Assembly: GCA_040383945.1 (NCBI GenBank)
Contig: JBEICN010000001.1
Location: 1 to 61,988 of the forward strand
DNA: 61,988 bases
Origin: Candidatus Peribacteria bacterium
Lineage (GTDB): Bacteria > Patescibacteriota > Gracilibacteria > BD1-5 > UBA2023
Reading direction: 5' to 3'
Shown here: positions 27,842 to 47,866 of the stretch, piece after piece
Numbering within the stretch: the stretch's first letter is position 1
How the letters are laid out: every line of letters starts with the position of its first letter
Made by a program: the position numbers and the translations under genes
The notes under the pieces: generated by a model
The model's database searches: none
Seen by the model: the letters and a program-made list of their open reading frames with translations, nothing else
What the model was told of the DNA's origin: nothing

Positions 27842-29077
27842 ATGGCATTCGAATTCAAAAAATATTTCTGAGAAATTACCCTCCTCCCGACCTGGTGGCC
27901 AAAAAAACAGTCTGGCAATTCGGGTTTTTCACTTCCCAAAGAGAAACCAAGTGCAAATACCAACACAAAGATTTCTCTGAATCGAAAAGAAAAAATATTC
28001 TTTTTGGATATGGTGGGTTCTTTGGTGGAAGCTGGAATTCCCTTGGTTAAATCCCTTCAACTCCTATATTTTCAGTCCAAAGAACCTGCTGTCAAGCAGG
28101 CATGTCTCTATGTAAAAACGCAAATCGAGCGGGGAAACAACCTCGGAACGACGAGTCGCGAACTACCAAGAGTGTTCGGGAGTTTTGATTGTGCCATGTT
28201 TGAAATGTGAGAGGCCACCGGAAAGATGGGGTACGTATTTGGGAAGCTTACAGAAAAAGAAGAAAAAATGCTAGAAATTGAGCGGAAGGTATTTGGGGCA
28301 ATGATATATCCAATTGCCGTCATTTCAGTGGCACTTCTTATGATGAGTGGATTGTTGATTTTTGTAATCCCGCGTATCGAAAAGATCTACCAGGACGCTC
28401 AGGCCATTCTTCCTCCTTTGACTCAGGGAGTGATTGCATTTTCTCATTTTCTTCAGTCATACGGTATCATTACCATAATCTTACTAGGGTTTTGCGGAAT
28501 CGGATTCAAGATACTGCTTCGCCAAGACAAAATACGGCTCGCGGTAGATAGGAGCATTATGACGTTGCCAATTTTTGGAAAGTTGATTCAATATCGAATT
28601 TTGGTGAGCTTTTGCAACTTCCTCTCGCTACTGCTTGCTTCAGGAATTACAATACATCGAGCTCTCGAAATTGTCTCGAGTGGATTATGAAACTCCTATT
28701 ACTCCGGCCATGTACGCGGAATTATCAATGATATACGAACGGGTACACATCTTTCTAATGCCGTAGGAGGGGCGTACCTTGAAAAAAAAATGGCTGGCGA
28801 GCCTACTGACTCGAATGAAATGCTGATTAACAAAGAGCGTCTTGAAATTTTTACCGTAGAGCTCTCTACATCGATCAAAGTTGGAGAGCAGACCGGCTCT
28901 CTTTCACAGATGCTCGAAAAAGCGGGAAAACGCTATGAAAAAGAGATCGATGTTCGAGTGAAAAATCTCAATGCCCTCCTAGAGCCAATTGTAATCATCA
29001 TTATCGGAGCAGGAGTGTGAGTGATCATTTTGGCGATCATGATGCCATTTTTCAATATGGCAAAAGTGGTCGGGTAG
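27842..29077 (+). CDS. pilC: type II secretion / type IV pilus platform protein (GspF/PilC family)
   Basis: Two GspF repeats, each followed by TM helices (first repeat runs VGSLVEAGIPLVKSL to GEATGKM; the second ends EQTGSL). Four same-frame pieces. Stop TAG at 29075-29077. Confidence 0.85.
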
Positions 29078-29080
29078 GAC

Positions 29081-30154
29081 CTATTCTTTGCTTGCAGCAG
29101 CAAGTTTAGCGCTCTGATCAGCAATCTGCAGCGCTTCTACAATATGCTTGAGTTTTCCTTGCATTATCGCAGGAATGTTGGAGAAGTTTGCGCCGATGCG
29201 ATGATCGGTAACGCGATCCTGAGGAAAATTATAGGTTCGGATTTTTTCTGATCGATCACCCGTACCCACTTGCGCGAGTCGTGCTGAACCGAGTGCGGCA
29301 CTTCGTTTGGCTTCTTCAAGTGCCCATATACGAGCCCGGAGAATGACGAGGGCCTTCATTTTATTTTGAAGTTGAGAACGCTCATCCTGACACTCAACAG
29401 CAATACCAGTAGGAAGATGTACCATGCGAATCGCAGAGTTTGTTTTGTTAACTGCTTGTCCGCCCGCACCACTAGAACGACATACCATAATATCCAGGTC
29501 TTCATCTCGAATGACAATATCGAGCGCTTCTACTTCGGGAAGTACGGCAACGGTAATCGTGCTCGTATGCACTCTCCCTTTGGCTTCTGTTTCGGGAATT
29601 CTCTGCACTCGATGGGTTCCACCTTCAAACTTAAACTGAGAATATGCGCCACTTCCGCTGATTTTGAAAATCTTTTCTTTGATACCACCGATATCAAGTG
29701 CATTTTCTTCCAGCACCTCTACCTGAAACCCGGATTCCTTGGCAAAAATCTCATATGCATTGGCAAGTTCACGAGCGAATAATGCCGCTTCATCGCCTCC
29801 CGCGCCAGACCTAATTTCCAAAATAATATTTTTGTCATCGTTTGGATCTTTTGGCAAAAGTGCCAACTTAATAGCCTCTTCGAGTTCAGGGATTTTGATG
29901 TCCGTTTCCGCCAACTGCATCTTCGCGAGCTCGATCAATTCCGGATCTTTTTCGGTAGAGAGAATTTCTTTGGCTTCGGCGAGGTTTTGGATTTGCGCTT
30001 TGTATTGCAAGTAGAGATGTACCGTGTTTTCCAGGGATTTCTTCTTGAGCATGGTTTCCTTAAGGAGTTTTGGGTCGCCATAAATATCTCCGTCCTGAAG
30101 TTTGAGTTCAATGGAGTGAAAATCTTCTACCAAATGATCGAGTTCGAATTTCAT
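29081..30154 (-). CDS. prfA: peptide chain release factor 1
   Basis: PET anticodon-mimic tripeptide (RIPETEAKGRVHTS) and SGAGGQAVNKT (GGQ motif). No in-frame TGA. ATG at 30154. Confidence 0.9.
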   Translation of the reverse strand: MKFELDHLVEDFHSIELKLQDGDIYGDPKLLKETMLKKKSLENTVHLYLQYKAQIQNLAEAKEILSTEKDPELIELAKMQLAETDIKIPELEEAIKLALLPKDPNDDKNIILEIRSGAGGDEAALFARELANAYEIFAKESGFQVEVLEENALDIGGIKEKIFKISGSGAYSQFKFEGGTHRVQRIPETEAKGRVHTSTITVAVLPEVEALDIVIRDEDLDIMVCRSSGAGGQAVNKTNSAIRMVHLPTGIAVECQDERSQLQNKMKALVILRARIWALEEAKRSAALGSARLAQVGTGDRSEKIRTYNFPQDRVTDHRIGANFSNIPAIMQGKLKHIVEALQIADQSAKLAAASKE

Positions 30155-30263
30155 AATATTGATTGTTTGAAGCGGAATTGTAGGGAAAAAATCGAAAAAA
30201 TCCATAGATTTTGCATTTTCCCCAGGTTTCGATACTATCTAGCCCGTTCGCGATATGCGATAT

Positions 30264-30347
30264 GCCCTGATGGCGGAATGGTAGACGCGGAGGACTCAAA
30301 ATCCTCTTCCCTCGGGAGTGCGGGTTCAAGTCCCGCTTGGGGCACCA
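30264..30347 (+). tRNA. tRNA-Leu (anticodon CAA), type II with long variable arm
   Basis: Anticodon arm GAGGA-CTCAAAA-TCCTC, variable arm TTCCCTCGGGAGT, T arm GCGGG-TTCAAGT-CCCGC, encoded CCA. Confidence 0.9.
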
Positions 30348-30391
30348 AAAAAATTAAGCCCTCGTTCGTGAGAACGGGGGATTATTTTTTT
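30348..30391. terminator. bidirectional terminator hairpin
   Basis: CCCTCGTTC-GTGA-GAACGGGGG, flanked by an A-run on the left and a T-run on the right. Confidence 0.55.
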
Positions 30392-30395
30392 GTGT

Positions 30396-30545
30396 CTTCC
30401 GGTGGTGGGACTTGAACCGCAGCCACACGGTCGATCTGCGGAGCAGGCGACCGGGAGAAAGCCACCAAAGTGGCTTTCGTGGCAAGGCGTTCCTCGAAGC
30501 GAGCATCCGATCCCTGTAAGGGTCGGTGCGACACTGAGAGGAAAA
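30396..30545 (-). ncRNA. GC-rich structured RNA candidate, class unknown (strand tentative)
   Basis: About 150 nt, much more G+C-rich than its surroundings, non-coding in all frames. Nested perfect hairpins: GAAAGCCAC-CAAA-GTGGCTTTC, CCGCAG-N13-CTGCGG, CCGATCC-N6-GGGTCGG. The terminator at 30348-30391 lies on its - strand 3' side. Confidence 0.35.
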
Positions 30546-30798
30546 AGTCATGCTTGTCAATCGAAATTCCCAAAAAAACTTTTGTTTGAAAAAATATATC
30601 CTATACTCCCCTTACTATATTTCACGTGCATCTGCCCGCGTATTTTTCTCTACAATTTTACGCATACATTGGTGAGACTGTCTGGTTCGATCATCGCATC
30701 AGCCACAATCACCTTCACCCTTGCTCCCTGTGATACAGTGAGCCTGGGAATCCTGCACACAGGGAACAAATTTGGGCACAACGAAAATTTGGTGAAAG

Positions 30799-30824
30799 AA
30801 CCGAGTATATTTGCTCGGTTTTTT
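30799..30824 (+). terminator. orphan rho-independent terminator-like hairpin
   Basis: AACCGAG-N8-CTCGGTT followed by TTTT. No annotated + strand gene lies upstream of it. Confidence 0.45.
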
Positions 30825-30876
30825 GCTTGTTTGGTGGAGATTGTGTATACTGAAAGTGTAATTATCTAGATATATC

Positions 30877-33800
30877 ATGACTACCAACTCAGAATCACCC
30901 GAAAGTGGGAGCAATTCTCAAAATACTAACTTGCAAAAAGTGACTCGAGCAAGGTTGTTAATTGAGGGTAGGATTGCGATCAAATTTGATGAAGCTATCT
31001 CGATTTCAAGGGATGCTGAGGGTTTTATCAAAAAGCATCTTTCCAACAAAAACAATGCCATCACCTTTGTAAATACCGAGTGGGAAAAAGTGGTCAAAGT
31101 TGACTCCAGCCTTGATGAAGTTATAAGCGAAGCAGATCTGGCAAAAATTGCTCAAAAACTTCGAGTAGAATTTATTGCAAAGGCGAAAAGTTTTGAGAAG
31201 AACCGAAACGACATCAAAAATGCCATTGTTCGAACGTACCAATTGAATGAAGCACAAATAGCCGGTATCAATACGGCCATTGCTGATATTCCTAGTCAAC
31301 AACTCAACTCGTATTTCTCTGCCAGCAGACAGAGAGAATTGCTCAAACGAGTTTGTGAGGAATTACGTCAAAATGTTCCTGTAACACTCGGAGCATATGA
31401 GCAGCTGATAAAGATTTTCTGAAGAAAAGAAGTGCGAGCGTTTGATAACAACACTGTAGCTATACTTGTACGTGCATACAATGATGGGGGTATAGAATCA
31501 GAGGACTTCCTGGATATTTGGGGCAAACTATCTACAAACTCTCGCCCTAAACTTCTTTCCATTTTTTCTGTTTACCTTCCACTACAGACTCTCCAGCGGG
31601 CAGACACTACCATATTTTCAACAGAAGCACTCAAGGCGGCTGTCATGGCTCAGATACAAACATCTCTTCCAGATGATCTAAGAACAGAAGGCAATGATGC
31701 AGCACTAGGAGAACTGGAGTGGACCGATATTCAAGACTTATATATCAATGAGGAAGTCATAACAAAACTTTTAAACGAAGCAAGTAGTCCATTTCCAGAT
31801 AAGCTTATAGTACCATTTAGGCAATGGCTTGAAGAACAAGTTGAAGCTGCAGCTGAAGAAAAAAACGACGACGCAGACAAAAGCTCACAACCTCGAGAGT
31901 CTACTGGGACAGTGAGCCAAAATAATGAGAGTATCGCAGATAATAGACTTGAAGCAATTATTACAGCACTTTCTGAATCAGGCTGAGAAACTTTAGAATG
32001 ATTAGACTTGCTTCAAGAGGAGAACTTTTTATCAGGAAAAAAGGCACTGATATTGACCTCTCAAAAAAATAATACACAAGCTACTTACAGAATAGAAGTT
32101 GTTCGCGATCAAAAGCCTAAAAACTGATGAAGTACCAAAATACGCATCACAAAGCTGGGGGAAGAATGAGCTGATCTTACTAATTCACGGGAGATGTCCC
32201 TACAAAAATTTGGTAGATTTCTCGATACATTCGACAAGTTGGAATTTAAAAAAGATAGTACAGTTGCTGCCAAAAAGACCACTGACACTCCAGAAAATAC
32301 TGAAAATGTTTCAGAAGAAGAATTCAATGAGCTCGATCTTGAAGACTGAGAAGTCGAAGAAGCTACCAATACTAATTCTGAAGCACTAGGAGAGTCCCCA
32401 GGTGCCCTACTAGACGAAGCAGAAAACGCGGACACCATCGTTACTCCTCCTAGAGAAGAAACTCAGGACGAGCAAGATCAGCTACCGAACAGTCTAGATT
32501 CATTCAACAAGGCAGTTTCCGAAAAAATGGGAACAGCCATCTCGCTTACCAAAAACAACTGCATAAGCATAGGAAAACCAGGAACTGAAAAATACAATGT
32601 GTATCGCATTAAAGATTTTACGGAAACTGGCATTATCTTCTGGAATAACTCGCAAACAACTCCCGAAGAAGAAGTAAGCTTCGCGGATCTCTACGAAAAA
32701 GGCGTAAAAAATGAAACCGCTGCTTTCAAGGTGCTGGAAAATAAACTCGAGACCATCGAAGATCTCTTGGGTATCATGCAACAGAATTCAACCCAAAAAG
32801 CCCTTTGGAAAGAACTCGAAGTGACTCGCGACAACAAAGATAATCCTATATTTGATTTTGTTGATCGCAGGTTTGATTCTACCAAAACGAAAAAGCAGTA
32901 TTTTCCTGGAAATGATGGGAAAATCATAGAAATCATTTCCATAGACAATGGGAAGGCACATATCAGAGTCGGGGAAGAATTCCAAAAATCAAATAAAAGT
33001 TCGCAGGCAAGCACGGCAAAGTGGTTCCAGGAAGAACAAGTTCCTCTGCAATATTTAGTACTTTACATGACAAGATTTTCTTGTGCGCCATGGAATGAGC
33101 CACCTCGGGAAATCGCATCACGAGCAGTTCCAGAAGAGGCAAAAACCACGAATGGAAAGATGAAATCGATTTTTGGAAGATTGAGTGCGTATGATATCAT
33201 GTCTGGATCCAAGAAGTTCATGGAGGCATTCAAACATCAGCTCCAACATGGCAATCATCTCCAAGAACAGCGAGTTATGCTTGGCATCGCAAAAAAAATA
33301 GGACTCGACAGCTGGAATAGTGAGTGGTACGCAGATTTCAAATCACAGTATGAAAATGGGGAGAAAAAACTCATCGAAGAACGACTCGAGTCCCTCGGAA
33401 AAATGTGAACCCCCGATCGACACAGGTCTATACGTGCCTCCTTGCTCAATAACGGAACCCATGATTATGACCATTGGACCAATGCGCTTTCTATGCTGGA
33501 AAAACATGGAAATCTCTACGCAGGAGGACTTCAGGATTTGGAAGGAAGCTGGATATTTTTTAAGCGCATAGCCGGCATTCCACTTAGCGCCAATGTAAAT
33601 GACTATACAGAGTTTCAATCTGCAGTCGAAAATATTCAGAAAAAAGGGATTGATAATATTACCGAAGAAGCGGTGATTGAGGAGTATATGAAAACGAATC
33701 CCCACTTTCAGAATTCCCAAATATGGAGAATGGTGAAAAAGCGCGTCAAGGAAGGAACCGATACCGAATTTACTAATGGTGGAAATGAGGTGGAACAATT

Positions 33801-35133
33801 TATCAATCTCGAACAGCGACTTGGATATGCGATGGGAAAATTCCAGTCCAAAGAGTATGCTCATGGCATTGGCGCTATGGAAAAAATATTTGAAAAGGAG
33901 GGTTCTGCATGGAAAAAGCAAAGCATCGGGTTTTTACTCGCCATGAGTCGAATACCGGAACGACTACCTCGGCCTATATTGGATAAGTTTATTCCAATGT
34001 TTGATCAGTGACGAACCCACTCGCCCTCGCTGGCGTTCATTAAAGACAGGAGCAGCCAAGAAAAATTCCGAGACGCTGTCCGTGCTATTGTTGAGGTAAA
34101 GAAAGAGCGCCTCATAGCTGATTGAAAAGTAGCCGAGGGGCAGAAAATTCAAGAAGATTTTGATGGCATGATGAAAGCTATCCGCACCAACACAGATACC
34201 ACGTCTTCTTCCAATGGATCATCGCTCAAATTTAAGACAGATGCCTACGACAAAGTGGACAGCTTTTGGAAAAAGTACGGAAAGGAAATCCAGTATGAAT
34301 TAACCGGAAATCCAAAAGGCTCAATTATGATTTCAGAAACAGAACTCAAAAAGCGGCCCGCCCTCGCCGAGTATAAAGCCATGCTCACGGCGCAACTCGG
34401 AAATACCAACATCATGAATGGAGTTGAGCTTGATAATGGCACACCGCTTATGGATGGCGAGGCTGGCTCCGGGGTGATTTCCTTCAAACCCGGTAAAATA
34501 CTTGACAAGATGGGCCTACAAATCCATCATGGAGGATTCAGTTGAAGTGATCTAGAGCGAGCCCTGCAAAGTGATTTCCGAGCAAGCATGGAAATGATTC
34601 GTGATACCAAAGAATTGAGTGAAGAAGACAAAAAGGCATGGTTCAAAAATATCTATGTCGAATACGTCAAGAAAATCACCGCAACATCAAATCTTACGAC
34701 ATTCTTGGAGCACTCCACCGTACAGCCATTCAATAAACTTGGACTGGTTCCTCCCCTGTATGCTTCCGAAGTAGAAATTAATGCAAAAATTCTCAATCTT
34801 CAAAAAGCACTTAGAGATATACAGCTCTCTATCGCGATGAAAAAAGCAGAACTAAAACGAGATACTCCCGCAGAAAAACAAAAAGAAATAAATGAAGAAA
34901 TTATCAAAAAGAACCAAGATGCAGCGGTGCTGCAACGAGTGATACGAGAAACAGAATGAACTCGAGGGCGATATGTTGAATATGACGAAAATAACCCTTT
35001 GCATGAAGCTCATTTTGAGCAGCAATTCCGAGTATTTATGAAGCAGGCAAGCTCAACGGTTACCGTAACAAAAAATACTGCCAACTTGGTAGATGATATT
35101 ATTCATAGAAATGCTGAGCCAAGTTTGGTATAA
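30877..35133 (+). CDS. giant hypothetical protein (1418 aa), no recognisable domain
   Basis: Six ORF-track pieces (30877, 31432, 32527, 33442, 34168, 34588) all share a frame. I read every gap codon by codon and found only TGA (about 12 in total). Stop TAA at 35131-35133. No signal peptide or TM helix. Acidic low-complexity linker around 32280-32480. Confidence 0.7.
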
Positions 35134-35241: not shown

Positions 35242-36375
35242 ATGACTCGTATTTGAATCGATGCAAGAATGTATGGCAGCATGTTTACTGGAATTGGGAA
35301 ACATGTTGCTTGTCTTATTGCCGAACTTTCTCGGCTCGTAGTGGCGGAAGACCAGATTACTTTCGTAATTTTTTGTAAACCCGAAAATGTCGAACAAATA
35401 CGGGAACTCTCTGAACATTTCGAGGTTATTGGGGTCAATATTCCGCACTATTCACTTCGAGAGCAATGCATCTTTCCGTACATACTGTATAGATCCAGGC
35501 TTGATTTGATGCATTTCCCTCACTTTAACGCCCCCATCTTCTATCGTGCCAAAACCGTAGTAACTATTCACGATCTTATTCTTTCTTTTTATCCAGGAAA
35601 GTCCATAGGCTCTTGGCTCAAAGAACTCGCCTACCGTATCACTTTGAACTCAGCAGTAAAGAACGCCGAGTGAATCATTGCCGTAAGTGAACACACAAAA
35701 AAAGATCTCATAGACTTACTTGATACAGAAGAGGAGAAAATTGGCGTAATCTACCATGGAGTCGACACCATATTTTCGACCCGAGCTTCCAACGAACGCA
35801 TTGCTGAAGTTTGAAAAAAGCTCGGCATTCCGGGGAAATATATTCTCTATTTGGGACTGCATAGAGAGCATAAAAACCTATGACGACTGGTTCGTGCCTT
35901 TGGAATTTTGGTATCGAGAGGATATGAGGGCACTTTGGTGCTTGGGGGGAAAGAAGATCCAAGAACCAATGAGGCAAGAGAAGCGGTTCGAGAACTTGGG
36001 CTAAAACATCGGGTTGTTTTCCCATGATACATGGAGTTTTGAGATGTGCTACCTTTGATACAAGGTGCGGAAGTATATGTTATGCCGTCTTTATATGAAG
36101 GATTTTGACTCCCCATTTTGGAGGCTATGGCATGTGGTGTTCCCGTAGCAGCATCAAAAACTACCTCACTTCCTGAAGTCGGCGGATGAGCGGCGAGATA
36201 TTTTCACCCCCTACGGATCAACGAGATGGCTGATGTTATTGAAGATATTATCAAGTCAAAAAAGCTTCAAAGCGAGATGATAGATCTCTGAAGTAAACAA
36301 GTAAAAAAATTCAATTGGCATACCATGGCAAAAGAAACGCTCGCAGTATACCAAAAAATACTTCATACCAAGTAG
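35242..36375 (+). CDS. glycosyltransferase, GT4/GT-B family
   Basis: N-terminal IGIDARMYG...GIGKH and C-terminal [21 protein letters not shown] motif. About ten in-frame TGA. Stop TAG at 36373-36375. Confidence 0.8.
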
Positions 36376-40061: not shown

Positions 40062-40113
40062 AGTTGCGTTAAAAAAATCAAAAGCGAATTATAGAAATAA
40101 TCTTCCAAAAAAC

Positions 40114-40136
40114 AAGCACCAAAAGGGAGAAAGTGC
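40114..40136. promoter_or_regulatory. CIRCE-like inverted repeat upstream of dnaJ
   Basis: AAGCACC-N12-GTGC: the same half-sites and spacing as the element upstream of groES (57990-58013), and the same GCAC-N13-GTGC geometry as CIRCE. Confidence 0.35.
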
Positions 40137-40367
40137 AAGATCGAATTCATGGATAATAGTTATAGTAACTGGCCCTCAAAACATAGAAATGATGGCGAAT
40201 TTCGCACGAGAAATACATAAATGCTGACCGAGCAGAACGAAAGTTCTTGTCTCGATGATTTGAAAATTTGTTATCGGTAAGTGGCGCTTTTCGGCCTCCA
40301 TTTTTGGAAGAGACAATTTACACTTTGGAACAGGTGAGCAATTTGTGCTTTGGTTTGACGAGACGAG

Positions 40368-41114
40368 ATGGTGCATGTTGAAATATCCGACTTTATCCGT
40401 ATGGTAGAACTCAAAAATATGTCCGATACACTTGCAAGATTCCTTGGAATCAAATCCGAACCCTCCGAATCCGAAATCCAACTCTTTGAGCGAGCTCAAA
40501 AATACCTCCGAGCCGTATCATGGATCCCCGGACTTCGAATGATAGCAGTCTGCAATAGCCTCTCCATGTACGCCTCAGATGGAGACTCTGATATCGATAT
40601 TTTTGTGGTAACTAATCCGCGGCGAATGTGGGTAACTCGAGTGTGCATGACAGCCATTTTTCAGATTCTCGGAGTACGACGACATGGCAAAAAAGTTGCA
40701 TGAAGATTTTGCCTTTCATTTTTTTGTACCACGAGTGTCATGGATTTTGAAAAAATTGCTATCGAAAACGATGTGTATCTGAAAGCCTGGGTAAATCATT
40801 TGAAACCGATAGTTGATATTGGGGGTTGTTACGAGGAATTCCTTGGGGCGAATGCTGGATGGATGGAGGTGGCCTCATTGAATAACAAGGAAAATACTCG
40901 ATTTCGATGTATTGAAAAACCGCTCTCGGTAGAGCGGCTGGGGTGGTGGTGGAATTTTTTGGACGCTTTGTTGCGTACCATGTTTGAACCATTGACCCTG
41001 AAAGAATACGAACGACTTGGGAAACCTTGGGGCATTATTGTTTCTGAGGATATGCTGAAGTTTCATCCGGGAGATCGGAGGAGGGAGGTGCGGGGAGAGT
41101 CTACGGGAAAATAG
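40368..41114 (+). CDS. putative nucleotidyltransferase-fold protein
   Basis: NSLSMYASDGDSDIDIFVV resembles the GS-x-DxD polymerase-beta-type NTase motif. Pieces 40368..40703 and 40740..41114 are in frame over one TGA. The start is uncertain. Confidence 0.45.
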
Positions 41115-41118
41115 CTAT

Positions 41119-43947
41119 TTATAATACCTTCTCTTTCCTTTGTTCAATAGGCTTTGAGATATCATCTGTGGATATCACTACCACGTCTATTCCCATGCAC
41201 ATAAGCTGATCTCTGAAAAGAGTATCAGTATCTAGAACATTTTGCCACCAACTCTTTTCTTGAGATTTAGACGTTACAATAGCGAATTCCTTATTGGATT
41301 CATCAAAATGAATTTTAGGTCGTTTTTCTGAAGTATCAACCAAAGCTCAAAACAAATTGCATAGAATTTCTCGTTTAGCAAGAGTAGACTTATTCAGAAA
41401 TTCAACATAAAATTTTTGAGTAAGATTTCCCTTTGCGTCTATATATCCTTGTTTTTTTAAATCAAATTCAAGCTCTAGGTGATCTTTGTTATCTAATATT
41501 GTTGCTCACGTAGTGGCAGTAGCAACAAGTCATCATGCCAAAATTGCAAGTTTCCCTTTCTTAGGTATTTTTTCGGCTACTTGCATCAATAATTTTGCAG
41601 TTTGACTATACATAGCAGGAGTTGCTCTTGCAGCATGCATAGCTCAGCGCGACGCATAACCAAGTGATTTAGCTATATCGATAGGGTGCATGAAAGCAGT
41701 TTTAGCAACAGTTCATGCTGCTCATTTTATATCTCCGTGTCGAAATACCTTTACTGCAGCCTCGTTTAAACCTCCGGCAATTCTAATGCCTTCAAATGTA
41801 ATAATTGTCATGCCTAATGCAGCTATTCCCGCATCACTTAATGTAGGAAGTTTTCCATTTTTCAAATCCTCAAAATTGACTCCAACATTTTTAATAAGTT
41901 GCCATCCTCATACCATTGGCACAAGTACGGTTTTGAGAGATTCCATAATTTCGCTAGAACTCGTCGCTTCGTCGGATACCACATTGGACATTGTTACCAC
42001 GAACGCACCTGCTGGTAAAATAGAACCGAGTCATCGGATTCATTCTGGAAACACTGCCAATAACTTGCGGAGCTCTTGAAAATTCTTCACGTCTTTTGCA
42101 TCCTCTAGGTGAAGCAATACTGTATCACCTTGTCGAATAAGTTTCATAGTATTTACGAAATCTCTCAAACGATTGATTTTTTCAATTCCACCTTTATCGG
42201 AACTAACTAGTAGATTTTGAAACCAACGCACATTATCTATATCTCGAAGATACTTTTGAATAACTCCATCGCCATTTCCAAAAAACATTCTCAGGTTTTT
42301 AATCTCTAATGAACGGGCAGGTGGTGCTCAAACAACTTCTTTGAGTGCCGTTTGAAAATTCTGAGCTTGTTTGATTTTTACTATTTCCGTAGCATCAAGA
42401 ACCTTGCTAAGTTCTGGATGCGCCAAGAATTTAGCTTTATCGTATTTTACTTCATCAAGAACGGAAATAATTTTCCAATTCTTTGTTGCGATATTCATTG
42501 CAGTCTTTAATTCTTCAATAATCTTTGCCATTCATTGAGTGTGTGGATTATTCGGGAGATTGGCAAATTTTTGATTAATAAGCTCAAATTCCTTGAAAAC
42601 CAGATGGTAATCACCTCCAGCTCACGTAAGTCACCGGAGTACGGAATATCCATTGGCACCGTTTGCAGTATCAACTCAGGCGGCTATACCGAGTTTCGCG
42701 ATATTAGCTATAATTCCTGAGGTAACTGCCCAAAATACTCCAAGTGGACGGTAGAGCTCCAATTGTACTAGCGACATCGCTTTTTCCCCTCAATTTGCAG
42801 AGTGTTTAGAAATTAAAGTATGGATTTCTTCAATGGTCATCGTCATGGGTGGAAGTCAAAGGCCATGAAATGTAAGACCAACAGCAGTTTTTGACCCACT
42901 CGAAACAGCTTCATAAACAATATGCTTAAGAGGAACTATTCCGGAAAAAGCAATTTTCCACATAAGTTCGGTAGCTCCCGTTGATAGGGTACCTAGAATT
43001 TGGGCGAGATTTTCAACAGTAATTTTCCCGCTTTCTTGAATATTTTTCGATATTTTTTGCAACTCTTCAGGGTTAAGATTGGTAGAGGTGATAATTTCGC
43101 GAATTTTTTTTATTTTATCATCCGAGAGCTTTGCTCAACCAAGATAGGTTTGAGAGAGATCATTCGCAACTTCATCGACCATTTTTGTGGTCAATTTCTC
43201 AATTTCCACTGGAGACATCTTTCAAAAAGACTCTAAAGCACTTTCTGCTTGTCCTGGTTTTTTTTGAGTAGTTTTTTTGCCACCATCAAGAACCTCCTTC
43301 CCCTTTTCTCATACCCCAGCCCCTGCCTCTCCGACAATTTCCGACCATTTCATCCCACCCATCAAGAATTTCCAAATATTCGAAAGCACCGCGAAAATCC
43401 CCATGACTCCGCCTGTTTTCAGTGGCTCGAGCACTTTTTCCAATGCTTTGACACCACTATATTCCATGACTTTTTGCCCGGCTGCATTGATGCTCTCTTT
43501 GACCCCTTCCATCAATTTTGTAGCCTCCTTTATATCTCCAGATTTAATAGCTTCCACTGCTTTCCCACCGATTTCTTTGGTAGAACTCACTGTCTCCTGA
43601 CTTATGGATGCGATTTTCCCAGCCCCGGATTCAAGTGCAACTTTGGCATCTTGGAGTAATTTTTGTTGGCTTGGGGAAATACTGGAATTGAGTCTTGCCA
43701 ATTCATCCTTAGTGCCGTCAACCATCTTTTCTGATTTTATTTCAAACGAACGCATCAATTGCTCAGCAAGTCCTCGGAATCTATCCCGCTCCTCTTTGCT
43801 CGTAGCAGTTTCTGCGCGTTTTTTGAGGTCATCAAGTATTGTTTTTGGATTCAAAGCTACTGACTCTTGATGTTCTTTGGTGGAGAGATTTTCGGTTTTA
43901 ACGGGAATGCTTTCCAAAGAAGTAGGTTTTTCGAGAGAGGAATTCAT
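41119..43947 (-). CDS. giant hypothetical protein (942 aa) with Gly/Ala-rich hydrophobic blocks
   Basis: ORF pieces 43309..43947, 42856..43062, 42328..42531, 42040..42288 and 41119..41343 share a frame. Hand translation of all gaps gives only TGA (about 20 in total). In-frame TAA at 43975-43977 upstream of the ATG at 43947. Stop TAA at 41119-41121. Confidence 0.65.
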
Positions 43948-44074: not shown

Positions 44075-47000
44075 CTACTTGGTAGCTGACCTGAGTGCTT
44101 CATCTGCCGCCCTAAGCGCATCATTTAGTCGTTGGCCTACCGCGTCTTTAGCTGGTGCCAAGTAACTTGGACTTGGCTGTCCATCAGTTCCAAACTTCTC
44201 AATTGCTGTAGCTGCAACCCCAGCAACTCCAGCCGCAGCTTTTTGGCCAAGATCCATGACTTCAGTACCTTCTACAATAGCCGAACCGAGCCATCCAAGC
44301 CAGATATAGTTAAAATAGTTATTGGCAAATTCTCCCTTATTATTATATGCGTAATTGATAAAGTCTTGGGTACCATGTATTTTATCGCTTCCATTTACCG
44401 CAAACTCTGCACCCGTAATCAAACCTACTGCCCCGAGTGTTTTGAGAGAAGGAGTCCATGCAGTAGGAAGGATTTTTCCGAGTCAATCATCTGCGTTCGA
44501 CCATAGGTGACCATGAGATGATCTACCAGTAAACAAGGTTCGAAGGACTTCGATTTTTCCAAGTCCGTTACCCGTGAATGGTAGGGTATTGAGATTTCAG
44601 GAAAGCTTGAGTTCTTTCCACATATTTCCAACCGACCAATCCCAAAGTTTAGTTGGTATTTTTTTGAGGAATTCCACCCCGAACATATCTTTGACTTTGA
44701 CGTTCTTGACTTTGTCAAACATGGGATTACCAGGTGAAAAAGGATTCTTAAAAAGCGAATCGAACTTACCGGAAGTGCCTTTCCCCAAGATAGCATTCAT
44801 GAGTGCATCAGCTTCTCCTTCACTTAATGCTTTGAGCTGAGCTTCCGTCATCCCTGTGAAACCACCATTGGCTCACTTTTTTTCGAGAATGAATCCTCCT
44901 GCCTCGTTTTTGGAAATTCGATAAGTCTGATCACCGATTCGGATTTCTTTCTTTACCATGGTTTCTACAGTACTGTTGAAATTCTTGGCGAGCGAATTTT
45001 TGAGCATCTGGTCTGGAGTGACATTCTCCGCAATATGTCATTTGAGTGCTTTGAGACCATTTTGGTTCACTGGAAATTTTACCGATTCGCCAACACCAGG
45101 CTTGAAGACATAATCTCTGTCTTTGAGTGTAACCGTAGCGTCTCCGATATTTACTGACTCGCCGTCTTTGAGTCCCTTGAGTTTTGATTCGAGATTTTGG
45201 AAAAACTTTTCAAATGATGCTCTCGCTGTTGCGGCAGGTCCGGGCTGTATGGCTGTAGTCTGCTCAACTGTTGGCGCAGGCGCCTCTACAGGACGTGCAG
45301 CTGGTGAAGTGGCACTAGTAGTGCGCGATGACTTGAACTTTCGCACATTTGCATTTACTCCATCAACGAACTCTTTGATTCAAGCTACTCGCGCAAGAGA
45401 AGGTCCTCCAAGTGGGCCAATTTCCAGAACTTCCACTCCATTACTCCCAGAAATTTTACGAACTGACCAAATAGATCCGTCGTTGGCAATAAACTGAGGA
45501 AATAGATTAGGATCCTTTTTCATCTGATTTCGAATTTTTCGAACGTCAGTTTGGGTAATTTCGCGGGTGGTAAAAAGTTCACGATTTGCCATTGTTGCTC
45601 GTGAAGCAGGCACTTCCGCAGCTGCAGATGATGTCTCCGCGGCACGTGCAGAAGGCGTCTCCACAGCACGTGCAGCACTAATATCACGATCTACCTGAGC
45701 AAGCACTTCGGATGCTCACTTTTTATCTCCGAGTGCTTGACGCACCTGAGCTTCCTGAAGTCGAGATTCGGCCCGTTTTGCAATAGCTTCACGACTCTTG
45801 GTATACGCCATTGATCCACCCCGAAATACCAGTGGAAGGAGTGCCCAAGGAAGATTGTTCTTGAGTGATTCCGCAAGAGAAATGTCAACACCTTGGAATT
45901 GGGATCGTATTTGATCCACAGTCACTCCAAGAGTATAATCTCCTGCCATTTCAACCCCAAGAGCTCCTGACTTACCAATTTTTCCGATGACCCCAGCCGA
46001 GCGGACTACACGGAAGAGCATACCTCCGGCGAGAAATGTTCCAACATTGATTGCCCCTTCTTGCAGAGTCTCTTTGCCAGAATATACTTTCCCCTCGAGT
46101 ACCATCGTAGCTCAAGTAGTAAGAGCTCCGCCAGCAAGTGCGGAGGCAGCCATCATCATCGGCACTCCTGCCACGGAACCAACCGCTGTGGCAGTAAAAA
46201 CAGCACCAGCAATTCCGAGTCCGACAGCAAGTAGTTGATCTCGCCCGAGAACCATTTTTACCTTATTCCGGTCCTTAAGATCAAGCCATCCCGTGGTTCC
46301 ATACATATCTTTGAGCTGATTGAGACTGCTTATTTCCTGGGCTGTCAATGATTTTTTATCCAATTTCCCTATTGCAGATATCATGTCCCTCTCATATTTT
46401 GCGAAGCTAGAATCATATACCTTATCCCAAGCACCTTTTATAGTAGGATTTGACAATGTTTCACCAAGAGCTTGATCAAAAGTCTTCCCCTGCTGCACTT
46501 TTGCGTTAAGCATGGTTGTAATAAGAGTTTTGGTATTTGCATCCAAACTCTTCATAATGTCAGTTTGAGTCGGAAAATTCGGAGTAGTCAATTTTGCACC
46601 AAGCACACCCTTCAACAAAGCCTCTGCAGTAAACGAATCTCGATAATGCTTATTACTCACCCCCCCTTCTCCTCGAAGATACAATGCCATTTCATTGCTA
46701 ATAGATTTTAGGTATTCCGCATTTCTTTCTGCATAGGCATTGTTTTTACCTAAAATATACTTAGCATTAAAGTCCGTCATTCACGCAATCAGAGCTTTCA
46801 TAGCCACGTCAATAAGCTGACCGTTGCTTTCTCGAGTTTTACCATCGGAGAGCTTATCAGCACCCTTTGTAGCTGATCTCCAAGCTCAGAGTAAATTTTG
46901 AAGACTTTCTAGGTCTTCTGTATATGTATCTTTAGTCTTTTCTGAGGAAGATGTAGATGATCATGCTGCACTAGAAGAAGCACTTGCGGCAGGCGCACTC

Positions 47001-47866
47001 GCTGGCTTAGCAGGACTTGGGGCTGAAGCAGGTGGTGACGACGATGCTGCCGCTGGACCAACTGCAGAACTTGCGGCAGGCGCACTCGCTGGCTTAGCAG
47101 AACTTGGGGCTGAAGCAGGTAGTGCACTTGGTGATGGTTTTGGCTGAGCAATGTTTTGGAGCGCTGCGAGGGTCAACGGACCAAACCAACCATCTGGAAC
47201 TCCTTTCCGAGAAACGGAAGCTACCGCATCAATCTTTTTGATTTCAGTCTGAAGTGCCAAAACTGCCTGGAGAGTAGGATTTTTAATAGCTGATTCGAGT
47301 AGTTCAAAGAGTTGAGGCTGACTGGTCTTGAGCTTTTCTTTGATGGCATCAAGTTCTGTTTTTTGCTTTCTCAAAAATTCTCTGCTATAAGCAACGCTTT
47401 TGGGCTCTCTTTCTGATACCGTTTCTGGTTTCTCTGAGGCTTTTGAGCTTGATGTAACTTTTGAGTCAGTCTTTACTCAAGCATCTCTTAACTTTGACTC
47501 CTCAGCACGGGATTGATTCAAAACAAGATCTTTATTTCGATCTCTCTTAGCATCAGCCGCTTCTGCCAGCGCAAAATACTTCTCAATAATACTAAACCGA
47601 TTTTCAAACTCCGGACCAGCATTTCCTCATTTGAGTTTCCGCTCCGCAGTGATGAAAGCGGTAATGTCAGCACGGGTTTTCGCATCGCCAAGATTTATTT
47701 TGCTGAGCTTATTCCACAAACTTTCAATTCGGCTTTCACCGTATACGCTGTCCCAAGAATCAATCTGTGACTGAAGCAGTCTTCGAAGTTCCTGTTGTTC
47801 AGTTGGAGCACCTTTTTGAACGATTGCAGCGTCAGAGAATAGCTCTAGGGTATATTTTTGAGACAT
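44075..47866 (-). CDS. giant hypothetical protein (1263 aa): PG-binding-like motif, Ala/Ser/Pro repeat linker, hydrophobic Gly/Ala-rich core
   Basis: Nine ORF pieces from 47627..47866 down to 44075..44422 share a frame. The gaps contain only TGA (about 12). ATG at 47866. Stop TAG at 44075-44077. Confidence 0.65.
46982..47124. repeat. imperfect tandem direct repeat (two 56 nt copies, 87 nt period) inside the 1263 aa ORF
   Basis: 46982-47037 and 47069-47124 differ at 2 of 56 positions. They encode PASAP..AKPASAPAAS low-complexity linker units. Confidence 0.8.

Follow-up and report, generated by a model that had tools for sequence, protein, structure and literature searches.

In a stretch of 61,988 nucleotides from a Candidatus Peribacteria bacterium (GenBank assembly GCA_040383945.1, contig JBEICN010000001.1, positions 1 to 61,988 of the forward strand; hereafter the window), the open reading frame (ORF) at 30877-35133 on the forward strand was shown to be a single-copy protein-coding gene of a Gracilibacteria-type bacterium using genetic code 25. 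That the gene is genuine and that its product of 1418 amino acids (aa) belongs to a conserved, uncharacterised family can be regarded as practically certain. The family could not be related to any characterised family or solved fold, and its function is tentatively read as that of an intracellular scaffold or adaptor. Gracilibacteria are uncultivated bacteria with recoded, reduced genomes, presumed to live on other cells, and roughly half of their proteins lack a functional assignment. Large proteins of unknown function are common in genomes of the Candidate Phyla Radiation. Related loci and proteins are referred to below by L and P numbers.

The gene spans 4257 nt (1419 codons) in a single frame closed by the TAA at 35131-35133. 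Translation of 30877-35133 revealed no in-frame TAA or TAG before this terminal stop, and 12 in-frame TGA codons (codons 182, 370, 375, 417, 418, 431, 491, 844, 1045, 1083, 1223 and 1361). In the original prediction, six ORF fragments interrupted by about 12 TGA codons had been joined into one frame ending in TAA, a real single gene visible only with code 25. This assembly was borne out, all six queried junctions being free of TAA and TAG and the TGA count being exactly 12. The preceding in-frame stop is the TAA at 30859, and the ATG at 30877 is the earliest start past it. The N-terminus (MTTNSE...) was seen again in orthologues, and start and end are common to the loci L001 (1403 aa) and L004 (1405 aa). 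At the base composition of the window, the probability of a 1418-codon run without TAA or TAG is about 2e-27. The remaining two forward frames contain 40 and 41 TAA/TAG codons across the same span, and when the window was shuffled 100 times, runs free of these codons reached 315 codons at most.

With TAA and TAG as the sole stops, long ORFs tile the whole window, including those for UvrB, KsgA, Hsp20, PilC, RF1, RecA, DnaJ, EF-G and AlaRS, and most of the long ORFs for familiar proteins hold TGA. Of four TGA codons read in RecA, three fall opposite Gly in the E. coli protein (RLGE, PMGRIVE, MKIGVMF). Within the gene family, 30% of the residues opposite TGA in orthologues are Gly encoded by GGN, against a Gly background of 6.9%, and Trp is not among the top eight residues at these positions. 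Opposite codon 1045, Gly (GGA, GGG, GGC, GGT or TGA) occurs in all 11 of 11 orthologues, and opposite codon 182 GGC, GGT or GGA occurs in three. Judged from these alignments, TGA is a glycine codon in the source genome, which belongs among code-25 bacteria.

An exhaustive HMMER search (phmmer; cutoff E<=1e-3) of 1.84 billion representatives with the TGA-free piece aa 536-843 as query returned 22 clusters of relatives. Long relatives were found at 23-26% identity, namely P0014 (1240 aa), P0022 (1266 aa), P0018 (1013 aa) and P0020 (919 aa). P0022 is NCBI entry MDD2486784.1 (PHS92_00230, GCA_028685185.1) from a metagenome-assembled genome (MAG) of Candidatus Gracilibacteria, annotated as 'hypothetical protein'. 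A pattern scan with an alignment of the closer set showed that five GTDB species representatives, labelled Gracilibacteria or Patescibacteria and including one from Lake Loclat, carry the family; earlier pattern scans with a two-sequence alignment had found nothing in GTDB genomes or in the JGI metagenome collection. After re-translation of the loci with code 25, full-length orthologues measured 1240-1540 aa and could be aligned end to end, including the N-terminal domain. Full-length homologues in Gracilibacteria MAGs ranged from ~20 to 90% identity. A word-indexed search with the full protein yielded P0001 (1403 aa, 83% identical), encoded on a 7.7 kb Logan contig of run SRR8088698, which is part of an Israeli freshwater metagenome data set (PMC9606356). 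Whether the query was the full protein or a 14-sequence profile, the only family members among the matches listed by word-indexed searching were P0001 and the fragment P0024; a core-only profile gave 10 matches. Public entries of orthologues (P0001, P0024, P0002 and others) are table-4 translations with Trp at TGA or table-11 fragments, and since such gene calls fragment or mistranslate the family, the word-indexed searches missed most members. No relative was found in IMG/VR and viral collections, and an exact look-up of the table-11 fragment aa 551-843 returned no record.

The gene had been described originally as a lineage-specific ORFan. The proposed HMMER search, with its 22 clusters and full-length homologues, spoke against ORFan status. 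The lineage-specific part of the description held, the family being seen only in Gracilibacteria, and so did the lack of homology to a known family, because no characterised family matched. A survey of distribution and synteny likewise removed the ORFan label and upheld the restriction to the lineage, with full-length homologues in a dozen or more lineages of Gracilibacteria or Patescibacteria and a gene order that was usually kept. A small, vertically inherited family of 1240-1540 aa was thus shown, so far in Gracilibacteria only, and the supposed singleton is now a defined family with clear domain limits.

Neither curated families nor solved structures (NCBIfam, PADLOC, PDB sequences) matched the gene product. 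Pfam gave no significant match and only two below threshold, to CheR (14.7 bits, weighed below) and to a chromo-like segment at aa 701-727 (E 0.19). PHROGs gave a single non-significant match (E 0.11), and a 14-sequence profile returned nothing from PDB sequences even at E<=10. When 28 family members were compared with Pfam, one stray match in one member was obtained (E 0.006). A phage origin was rejected for lack of support from PHROGs, the BFVD fold search and IMG/VR. A polymorphic toxin of the LXG, Rhs or CDI type was rejected as well: the polarity is reversed, with a variable N-terminus and a conserved C-terminus, and the downstream gene is a conserved glycosyltransferase. The gene was also rejected as a target of a diversity-generating retroelement, as it contains no repeat of >=40 nt and no adenine-specific substitutions; a reverse transcriptase was not specifically scanned for. 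The substitutions comprised transitions and transversions of all kinds (commonest G>A, 64, and A>G, 45) and were spread over ~1.5 kb.

All parts of the gene described here lie on the forward strand. The N-terminal half (aa 1-455, 30877..32241) is fast-evolving and mosaic between strains, and holds a conserved island at aa 91-180 (31147-31416). The sequence pattern of aa ~381-450 suggests another small beta module. An acidic low-complexity linker follows (aa 456-540, 32242..32496), with an isoelectric point (pI) of 4.05 and 26 D+E versus 5 K+R; it aligns poorly and differs in length across the family. A division of the protein by such a linker into an N-terminal and a C-terminal part had been foreseen. 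Two beta-barrels of the Tudor/SH3/KOW type, separated by a helical spacer, are predicted by AlphaFold2 at aa ~562-611 and ~647-733 (32497..33111), and R664, F676 and G681 in this region are invariant or nearly so. The most conserved block (aa 746-1080, 33112..34116) would consist of disordered residues at aa 745-773 and then an all-alpha domain. It contains the motifs KKFxExFKHxLxHGNHLQE, GTHDYDHW, KHGNLYAGGLxDLEG and EYAHGIGA, and the pI of the segment aa 746-1090 is 9.0. A variable loop (aa 1081-1130, 34117..34266) leads to a second conserved helical block (aa 1131-1300, 34267..34776); F1130, W1131, Y1166 and G1188 are invariant. The remainder is modelled as a long helical hairpin (aa ~1298-1361) and C-terminal helices (34777..35130). 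In L008-L012, ~10 aligned positions are left of the hairpin region, which is absent from distant members.

Sixty-three columns are invariant or nearly so, mainly G, L, F, P, W and Y, and most fall within aa 746-1080. The charged ones (R664, K786, H787, D820, K876, E930) form no recognised motif. As the conserved columns contain no recognised catalytic motif, the protein is read as non-enzymatic. No hydrophobic segment was found (highest Kyte-Doolittle mean over 19 residues 0.85, versus >2.7 for membrane proteins of the window), and by hydropathy there was no Sec/Tat signal and no transmembrane helix, the N-terminus being polar. These results agree with the earlier statement that a signal peptide, transmembrane helix and recognisable catalytic motif are lacking. 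All family members start with a polar, probably disordered N-terminus of 25-40 residues.

The AlphaFold2 model (m8ca48680db58) covers residues 536-1403 of P0001 (868 residues), which correspond to aa 536-1418 of the gene product and are ~95% identical to it there. The 28-sequence alignment used gave a mean predicted local distance difference test score (pLDDT) of 80.5 and a predicted template-modelling score of 0.58. Barrel strands were placed at model residues 27-66 and 112-188, in a block with pLDDT mostly 72-93. They are followed by an all-helical region of ~650 residues, with ~630 residues of short helices, and the hairpin helices occupy model residues 748-776 and 782-811; aa 746-1080 was modelled with pLDDT 80-96. 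A single-sequence AlphaFold2 model of aa 536-843 reached a pLDDT of 45.5 and was unusable. With Foldseek, nothing in PDB or BFVD reached E<=0.001, and for aa 746-1080 there was no fold match in these databases at E<0.01. The lowest E values were 0.016-0.04, and the best whole-chain matches were to the generic eukaryotic alpha-solenoids of IFT-A, HOPS, CBP80 and CRM1 (template-modelling score ~0.1). In the barrel region the matches were to FMRP tandem Tudor, TDRD1 extended Tudor, Agenet, DSIF KOW6-7 and SH3-like/DUF1653 phage proteins (E 0.08-0.9), those to small phage barrels reaching a probability of up to 0.99 but E>=0.08. On this model, the C-terminal helical half was shown to be without a detectable relative among solved structures. 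The AlphaFold and Foldseek comparison that had been proposed was thus consistent with the claim of no known family for the C-terminal 868 residues; homologues of known function did not come to light. An internal duplication of three beta modules was dropped as a candidate, with hhalign probabilities of 1-13%.

The window and L001 represent the same species: the flanking genes for a family 4 glycosyltransferase (GT4), an FNR-like reductase, orf122 and RecA are 98-99.7% identical, with a synonymous divergence (dS) of 0.012-0.043. Within the gene, the first 20 residues are 100% identical (dS 0), aa 21-90 only 41% (dS 0.90), the conserved island aa 91-180 96% (dS 0.017) and aa 181-520 63% (dS 0.26; ratio of nonsynonymous to synonymous divergence, dN/dS, 0.91). 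Differences in aa 1-520 are about equally distributed over the three codon positions (110, 84, 106). From aa 541 to 960 amino acid and nucleotide identity are both 97-100%, and in aa 961-1080 they are 93-100% and 86-93%, respectively. The variable loop aa 1081-1130 is 60% identical (dS 0.55), with a 15-aa deletion in L001, aa 1131-1350 is 98% identical (dS 0.08; 98% also for the second conserved helical block) and aa 1351-1418 75% (dS 0.37). Since neighbouring blocks differ ~50-fold in dS, which is beyond the reach of protein selection alone, the pattern indicates that divergent segments were imported by homologous recombination, and that the mosaic N-terminal ~520 aa, in which the two strains differ by 30-60%, probably arose in this way.

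The C-terminal core is under strong purifying selection, with dN/dS of 0.08-0.13 in three pairwise comparisons and of 0.09-0.12 for aa 1131-1300. L004, which belongs to another species (prfA dS 0.50), provides a third complete allele, with 86-91% identity in the core (dN/dS 0.10-0.12) and 48% in aa 181-520 (dN/dS 0.32). In L014-L018, identity is 63-83% for aa 746-1080 and 37-68% for aa 1131-1300; the former block is still 22-41% identical in the most distant members. Where aa 746-1080 reaches 63-83% across the family, the N-terminal half is put at 16-39% or at 10-30%.

L015, L016 and L017 show all or overlapping parts of the order prfA, tRNA-Leu, small RNA (sRNA), ORF, GT4, FNR-like reductase, orf122 (122 aa), RecA and DnaJ, and the L001 contig covers the part from the ORF to RecA. 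In the distant loci L008 and L009 the ORF is followed by an 88-aa PF02594 gene on the opposite strand and then by GT4 and FNR-like reductase; in L011 and L012 it is ORF, a divergent GT4, FNR-like reductase, RecA and DnaJ. L010 is the sole locus with a differing gene order. No paralogue was found within the window. The gene is a core, vertically inherited one and not mobile. The GT4 gene (35242..36375, +; Pfam Glycos_transf_1 93.7 bits, Glyco_transf_4 51 bits) starts 108 nt downstream on the same strand, with no terminator-like site between 35133 and 35242. GT4 comes after the ORF in L001, L014-L017, L008, L009 and L011/L012; no NCBIfam equivalog matched it above its cutoff.

Directly upstream of the gene lies an unannotated structured sRNA of ~215 nt (30614..30839, +). 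It is preceded by a conserved TATACT box resembling a -10 element (30602-30607, +) and contains an intrinsic terminator (30795-30830, +) whose stem covaries. A 16-nt hairpin loop (30643-30658, +), UUUUUCUCUACAAUUU, is CU-rich, the same in six loci and slightly altered in L009, and could act as a base-pairing seed; no complementary site near a start codon was found in the window. A second TATACT (30846-30851, +) suggests that the ORF may have its own promoter. The sRNA was found immediately upstream of the homologous ORF in eight loci (window, L002, L004, L015, L016, L017, L018 and L009) and was not detected upstream of the distant homologues L008 and L010. Its several stems show compensatory changes: in seven sequences, 23 of 58 pairs had changed on both sides, versus 8.2 +/- 2.1 in shuffles (0/500), and 88% of cells were paired versus 32-47% with the partners slid. 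Window and L004 share ~97% identity over the 530 nt from tRNA-Leu to the ATG, much more than at the synonymous sites of prfA (dS 0.50). Rfam gave no sRNA match at E<=1 in window positions 30200-30900 or at E<=0.5 in L009, L015, L017 and L018, only tRNA-Leu passing, and identification as RNase P, tmRNA, SRP or 6S RNA was rejected for want of Rfam support. A metagenome match to the sRNA pattern, L019, occurred without the ORF and was discarded as chance.

The protein is large and soluble; its helical core is conserved and read as non-enzymatic, two barrels precede the core, the N-terminal end varies and the gene neighbours are fixed. A role as an intracellular scaffold or adaptor fits best, and it is put forward at somewhat less than an even chance. 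Such a protein would act inside the cell without enzymatic activity. Conserved partners, either protein or nucleic acid, would bind to the helical core and the barrels, and the N-terminal half would contact a strain-specific partner, with fresh variants arriving via homologous recombination. The co-oriented downstream GT4 and the upstream sRNA are candidate partners because both adjoin the gene across deep divergence. Several points weigh against this interpretation. 'Scaffold' is the default reading of the modelled fold class, the partners are candidates only, and the Foldseek matches are not significant; the model is limited to the C-terminal 868 residues and the N-terminal half lies outside it. 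The lack of a signal peptide and transmembrane helix was judged from hydropathy alone, and the polar N-terminus could be an unrecognised export signal. Cys is depleted across the family (0-0.5%, versus 0.7% in housekeeping proteins), and low Cys is typical of many exported proteins of monoderm bacteria. Hypervariability between strains is unusual for an intracellular housekeeping scaffold and commoner in exposed or antagonistic proteins. These last points lead to the role in host interaction that an earlier reader of the sequence had favoured, read here as an exported or surface factor that would reach its place by a non-classical route and serve contact with host, prey or phage, the hypervariable N-terminal half being the exposed end that recognises or is recognised and the conserved C-terminal half anchoring the protein or binding machinery. 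This is possible, if rather doubtful. It would account for N-terminal alleles that are mosaic and high in both dS and dN (dN/dS 0.9 within the species) in a 99% identical background, for the disordered polar N-terminus, whose kind is conserved across the family, and for the low Cys content. It also accords with the restriction to one lineage, with further large Cys-poor proteins of unknown function nearby and with a GT4 neighbour that could glycosylate the protein. However, no signal peptide, transmembrane helix, cell-wall anchor or S-layer motif was seen, and the predicted helical solenoid with Tudor/SH3-like barrels is unlike the Ig-like or beta-helix repeats typical of adhesins. The gene lies in a housekeeping block away from secretion genes; prfA, encoded on the opposite strand, lies between it and the PilC gene (27842-29077). 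N-terminal dN/dS drops to 0.3-0.5 between species, which fits relaxed constraint as well as positive selection, and the strong purifying selection on the core also argues against export.

The linkage to the sRNA bears on a further explanation, a clade-specific ribonucleoprotein of the gene product and the 215-nt sRNA, in which RNA binding would fall to the barrels and the basic helical block, in a layout like that of Ro60 and Y RNA; it is considered unlikely. The sRNA lies upstream on the same strand in eight of eight loci with both upstream sequence and a clade member available, including L009, whose core is 16-33% identical. Where 2.7-2.9 kb of unrelated genes split tRNA-Leu from the sRNA, in L015 and L018, the sRNA still adjoins the ORF. 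The covariation-supported structure, the weak fold matches to Tudor/KOW-type barrels and the pI of 9.0 of aa 746-1090 point the same way. However, a -10-like box and a terminator belong to the sRNA itself and the ORF seemingly has a -10-like box too, so the adjacency may be plain synteny, and the sRNA was not found upstream of the most distant members L008 and L010. The protein contains no known RNA-binding motif, the fold matches do not include Ro60, and the invariant CU-rich loop equally fits an sRNA that base-pairs in trans. An equally low probability attaches to a functional pair of gene and sRNA, whether a Gracilibacteria-specific ribonucleoprotein or an sRNA-controlled module, in which the variable N-terminus would set host, prey or phage specificity and be swapped by recombination. 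The GT4 neighbour also matches the Pfam GT4-conflict model (42.4 bits, cutoff 26), and variable sensor ends are common among defence proteins. A conflict or anti-phage component acting with GT4, the variable N-terminal half being the sensor, is nevertheless very unlikely: PADLOC gave no match, effector domains such as a nuclease or an NTPase were not found, GT4 scores far higher with the generic GT1/GT4 models, and the position is fixed in the core genome across the clade rather than in a defence island. Least credible, and rejected, is an N-terminal CheR-like methyltransferase using S-adenosylmethionine. The Pfam CheR match (PF01739; aa 83-179, E 0.022) reached 14.7 bits versus a cutoff of 27 and was limited to positions 85-181 of 195 in the profile, its C-terminal half. 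A Gly-rich S-adenosylmethionine-binding loop appears, by eye, to be missing from the segment, the match in an orthologue was marked 'weak', and the region is 14-31% identical in distant relatives, L015 onward. P0024, a table-11 N-terminal fragment of an orthologue, was named 'chemotaxis methyl-accepting protein methylase' by JGI; this name rests on the same weak match and was therefore disregarded. The conserved core, the strain-level mosaicism of N-terminal alleles and the GT4 and sRNA neighbours make the family a well-defined experimental target.

Known proteins that resemble the gene product include uncharacterised 'hypothetical protein' entries of Gracilibacteria MAGs. For one of these, MDD2486784.1, an end-to-end alignment at ~19% identity shows the same domain order (N-terminal part, barrels, core), and a GT4 gene comes after it. 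It differs in the absence of the long hairpin (aa ~1301-1360), in a shorter acidic linker and in that no upstream sRNA was detected. Tudor/Agenet, KOW and SH3-like barrels (FMRP 4OVA/2BKD, TDRD1 5M9N, DSIF KOW6-7 5OHQ, phage DUF1653) recur among the Foldseek matches for the region where the model predicts two small five-stranded barrels in tandem, but these matches are not significant (E 0.08-0.9) and the rest of the gene product is unrelated. Alpha-solenoid scaffolds (IFT-A, HOPS, CBP80, CRM1/karyopherins, beta-catenin) share long arrays of short helices, a likeness of fold class only (template-modelling score ~0.1, root-mean-square deviation 20-40 A), and are eukaryotic. Ro60 (Rsr) is a helical-repeat protein whose gene adjoins structured Y RNA genes at rsr/yrn loci. 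The analogy lies in the neighbouring structured small RNA gene; Ro60 was matched neither in sequence nor in fold, a vWA domain is absent, and Rfam gave no match for the RNA. A hypervariable PTD-repeat gene in a closed Gracilibacterium genome varies in the copy number and sequence of a 9-mer repeat (Sieber et al. 2019, PMC6851277). It is likewise a large lineage-specific Gracilibacterium gene with extreme local variation within a population, but the present gene has no repeats, and its mosaic allelic blocks extend over ~1.5 kb of non-repetitive sequence.

Further observations were made around the locus. The prfA gene, which encodes RF1 (29081-30205, -), contains zero TGA codons. RF2 was not noticed among the window ORFs examined, no search aimed at it having been made. 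The exact RF1 protein sequence is also on record in two further samples, ERZ19400094 and ERR9973194. A second conserved non-coding stretch (~30382-30607, +/-) is located between the tRNA-Leu terminator and the sRNA and is ~95% identical to L004-L006. It is also present at L015 563-774 and is absent from L017, where the sRNA begins ~80 nt after the tRNA. It contains a compensatory hairpin (AAAGCCAC/GTGGCUUU versus AAAUGCCA/UGGCAUUU) and a GUAA-capped hairpin at 30506-30526. The call of a 130-aa code-25 ORF at 30239-30631 (-), which overlaps tRNA-Leu and this stretch, looks non-protein-like. In L002, from the species of the window, the tRNA-Leu terminator hairpin (equivalent to ~30348-30400) is swapped for another hairpin between nearly identical flanks, a further sign of local recombination at the locus. 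In related species, variable insertions separate tRNA-Leu from the sRNA-ORF pair: the one in L015 (763-3260) encodes a MORN-repeat protein and a 423-aa ORF resembling tetratricopeptide repeats by eye, and the one in L018 (658-3258) a small membrane protein together with an ABC transporter ATPase/permease. The side towards tRNA-Leu seems to be a hotspot for insertions.

Two further large proteins are encoded in the window, both Cys-poor, without a Pfam match and with one transmembrane-like hydrophobic segment, namely one of 942 aa (41119-43947, -; 20 TGA) and one of 1263 aa (44075-47866, -; 12 TGA). The latter has an Ala/Ser/Pro-rich low-complexity region with an 82-nt direct repeat (46956-47124). 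Between DnaJ and the 942-aa ORF, the call of a 325-aa code-25 ORF (40089-41066, -) looks non-protein-like, is of low complexity and may hide another non-coding feature.

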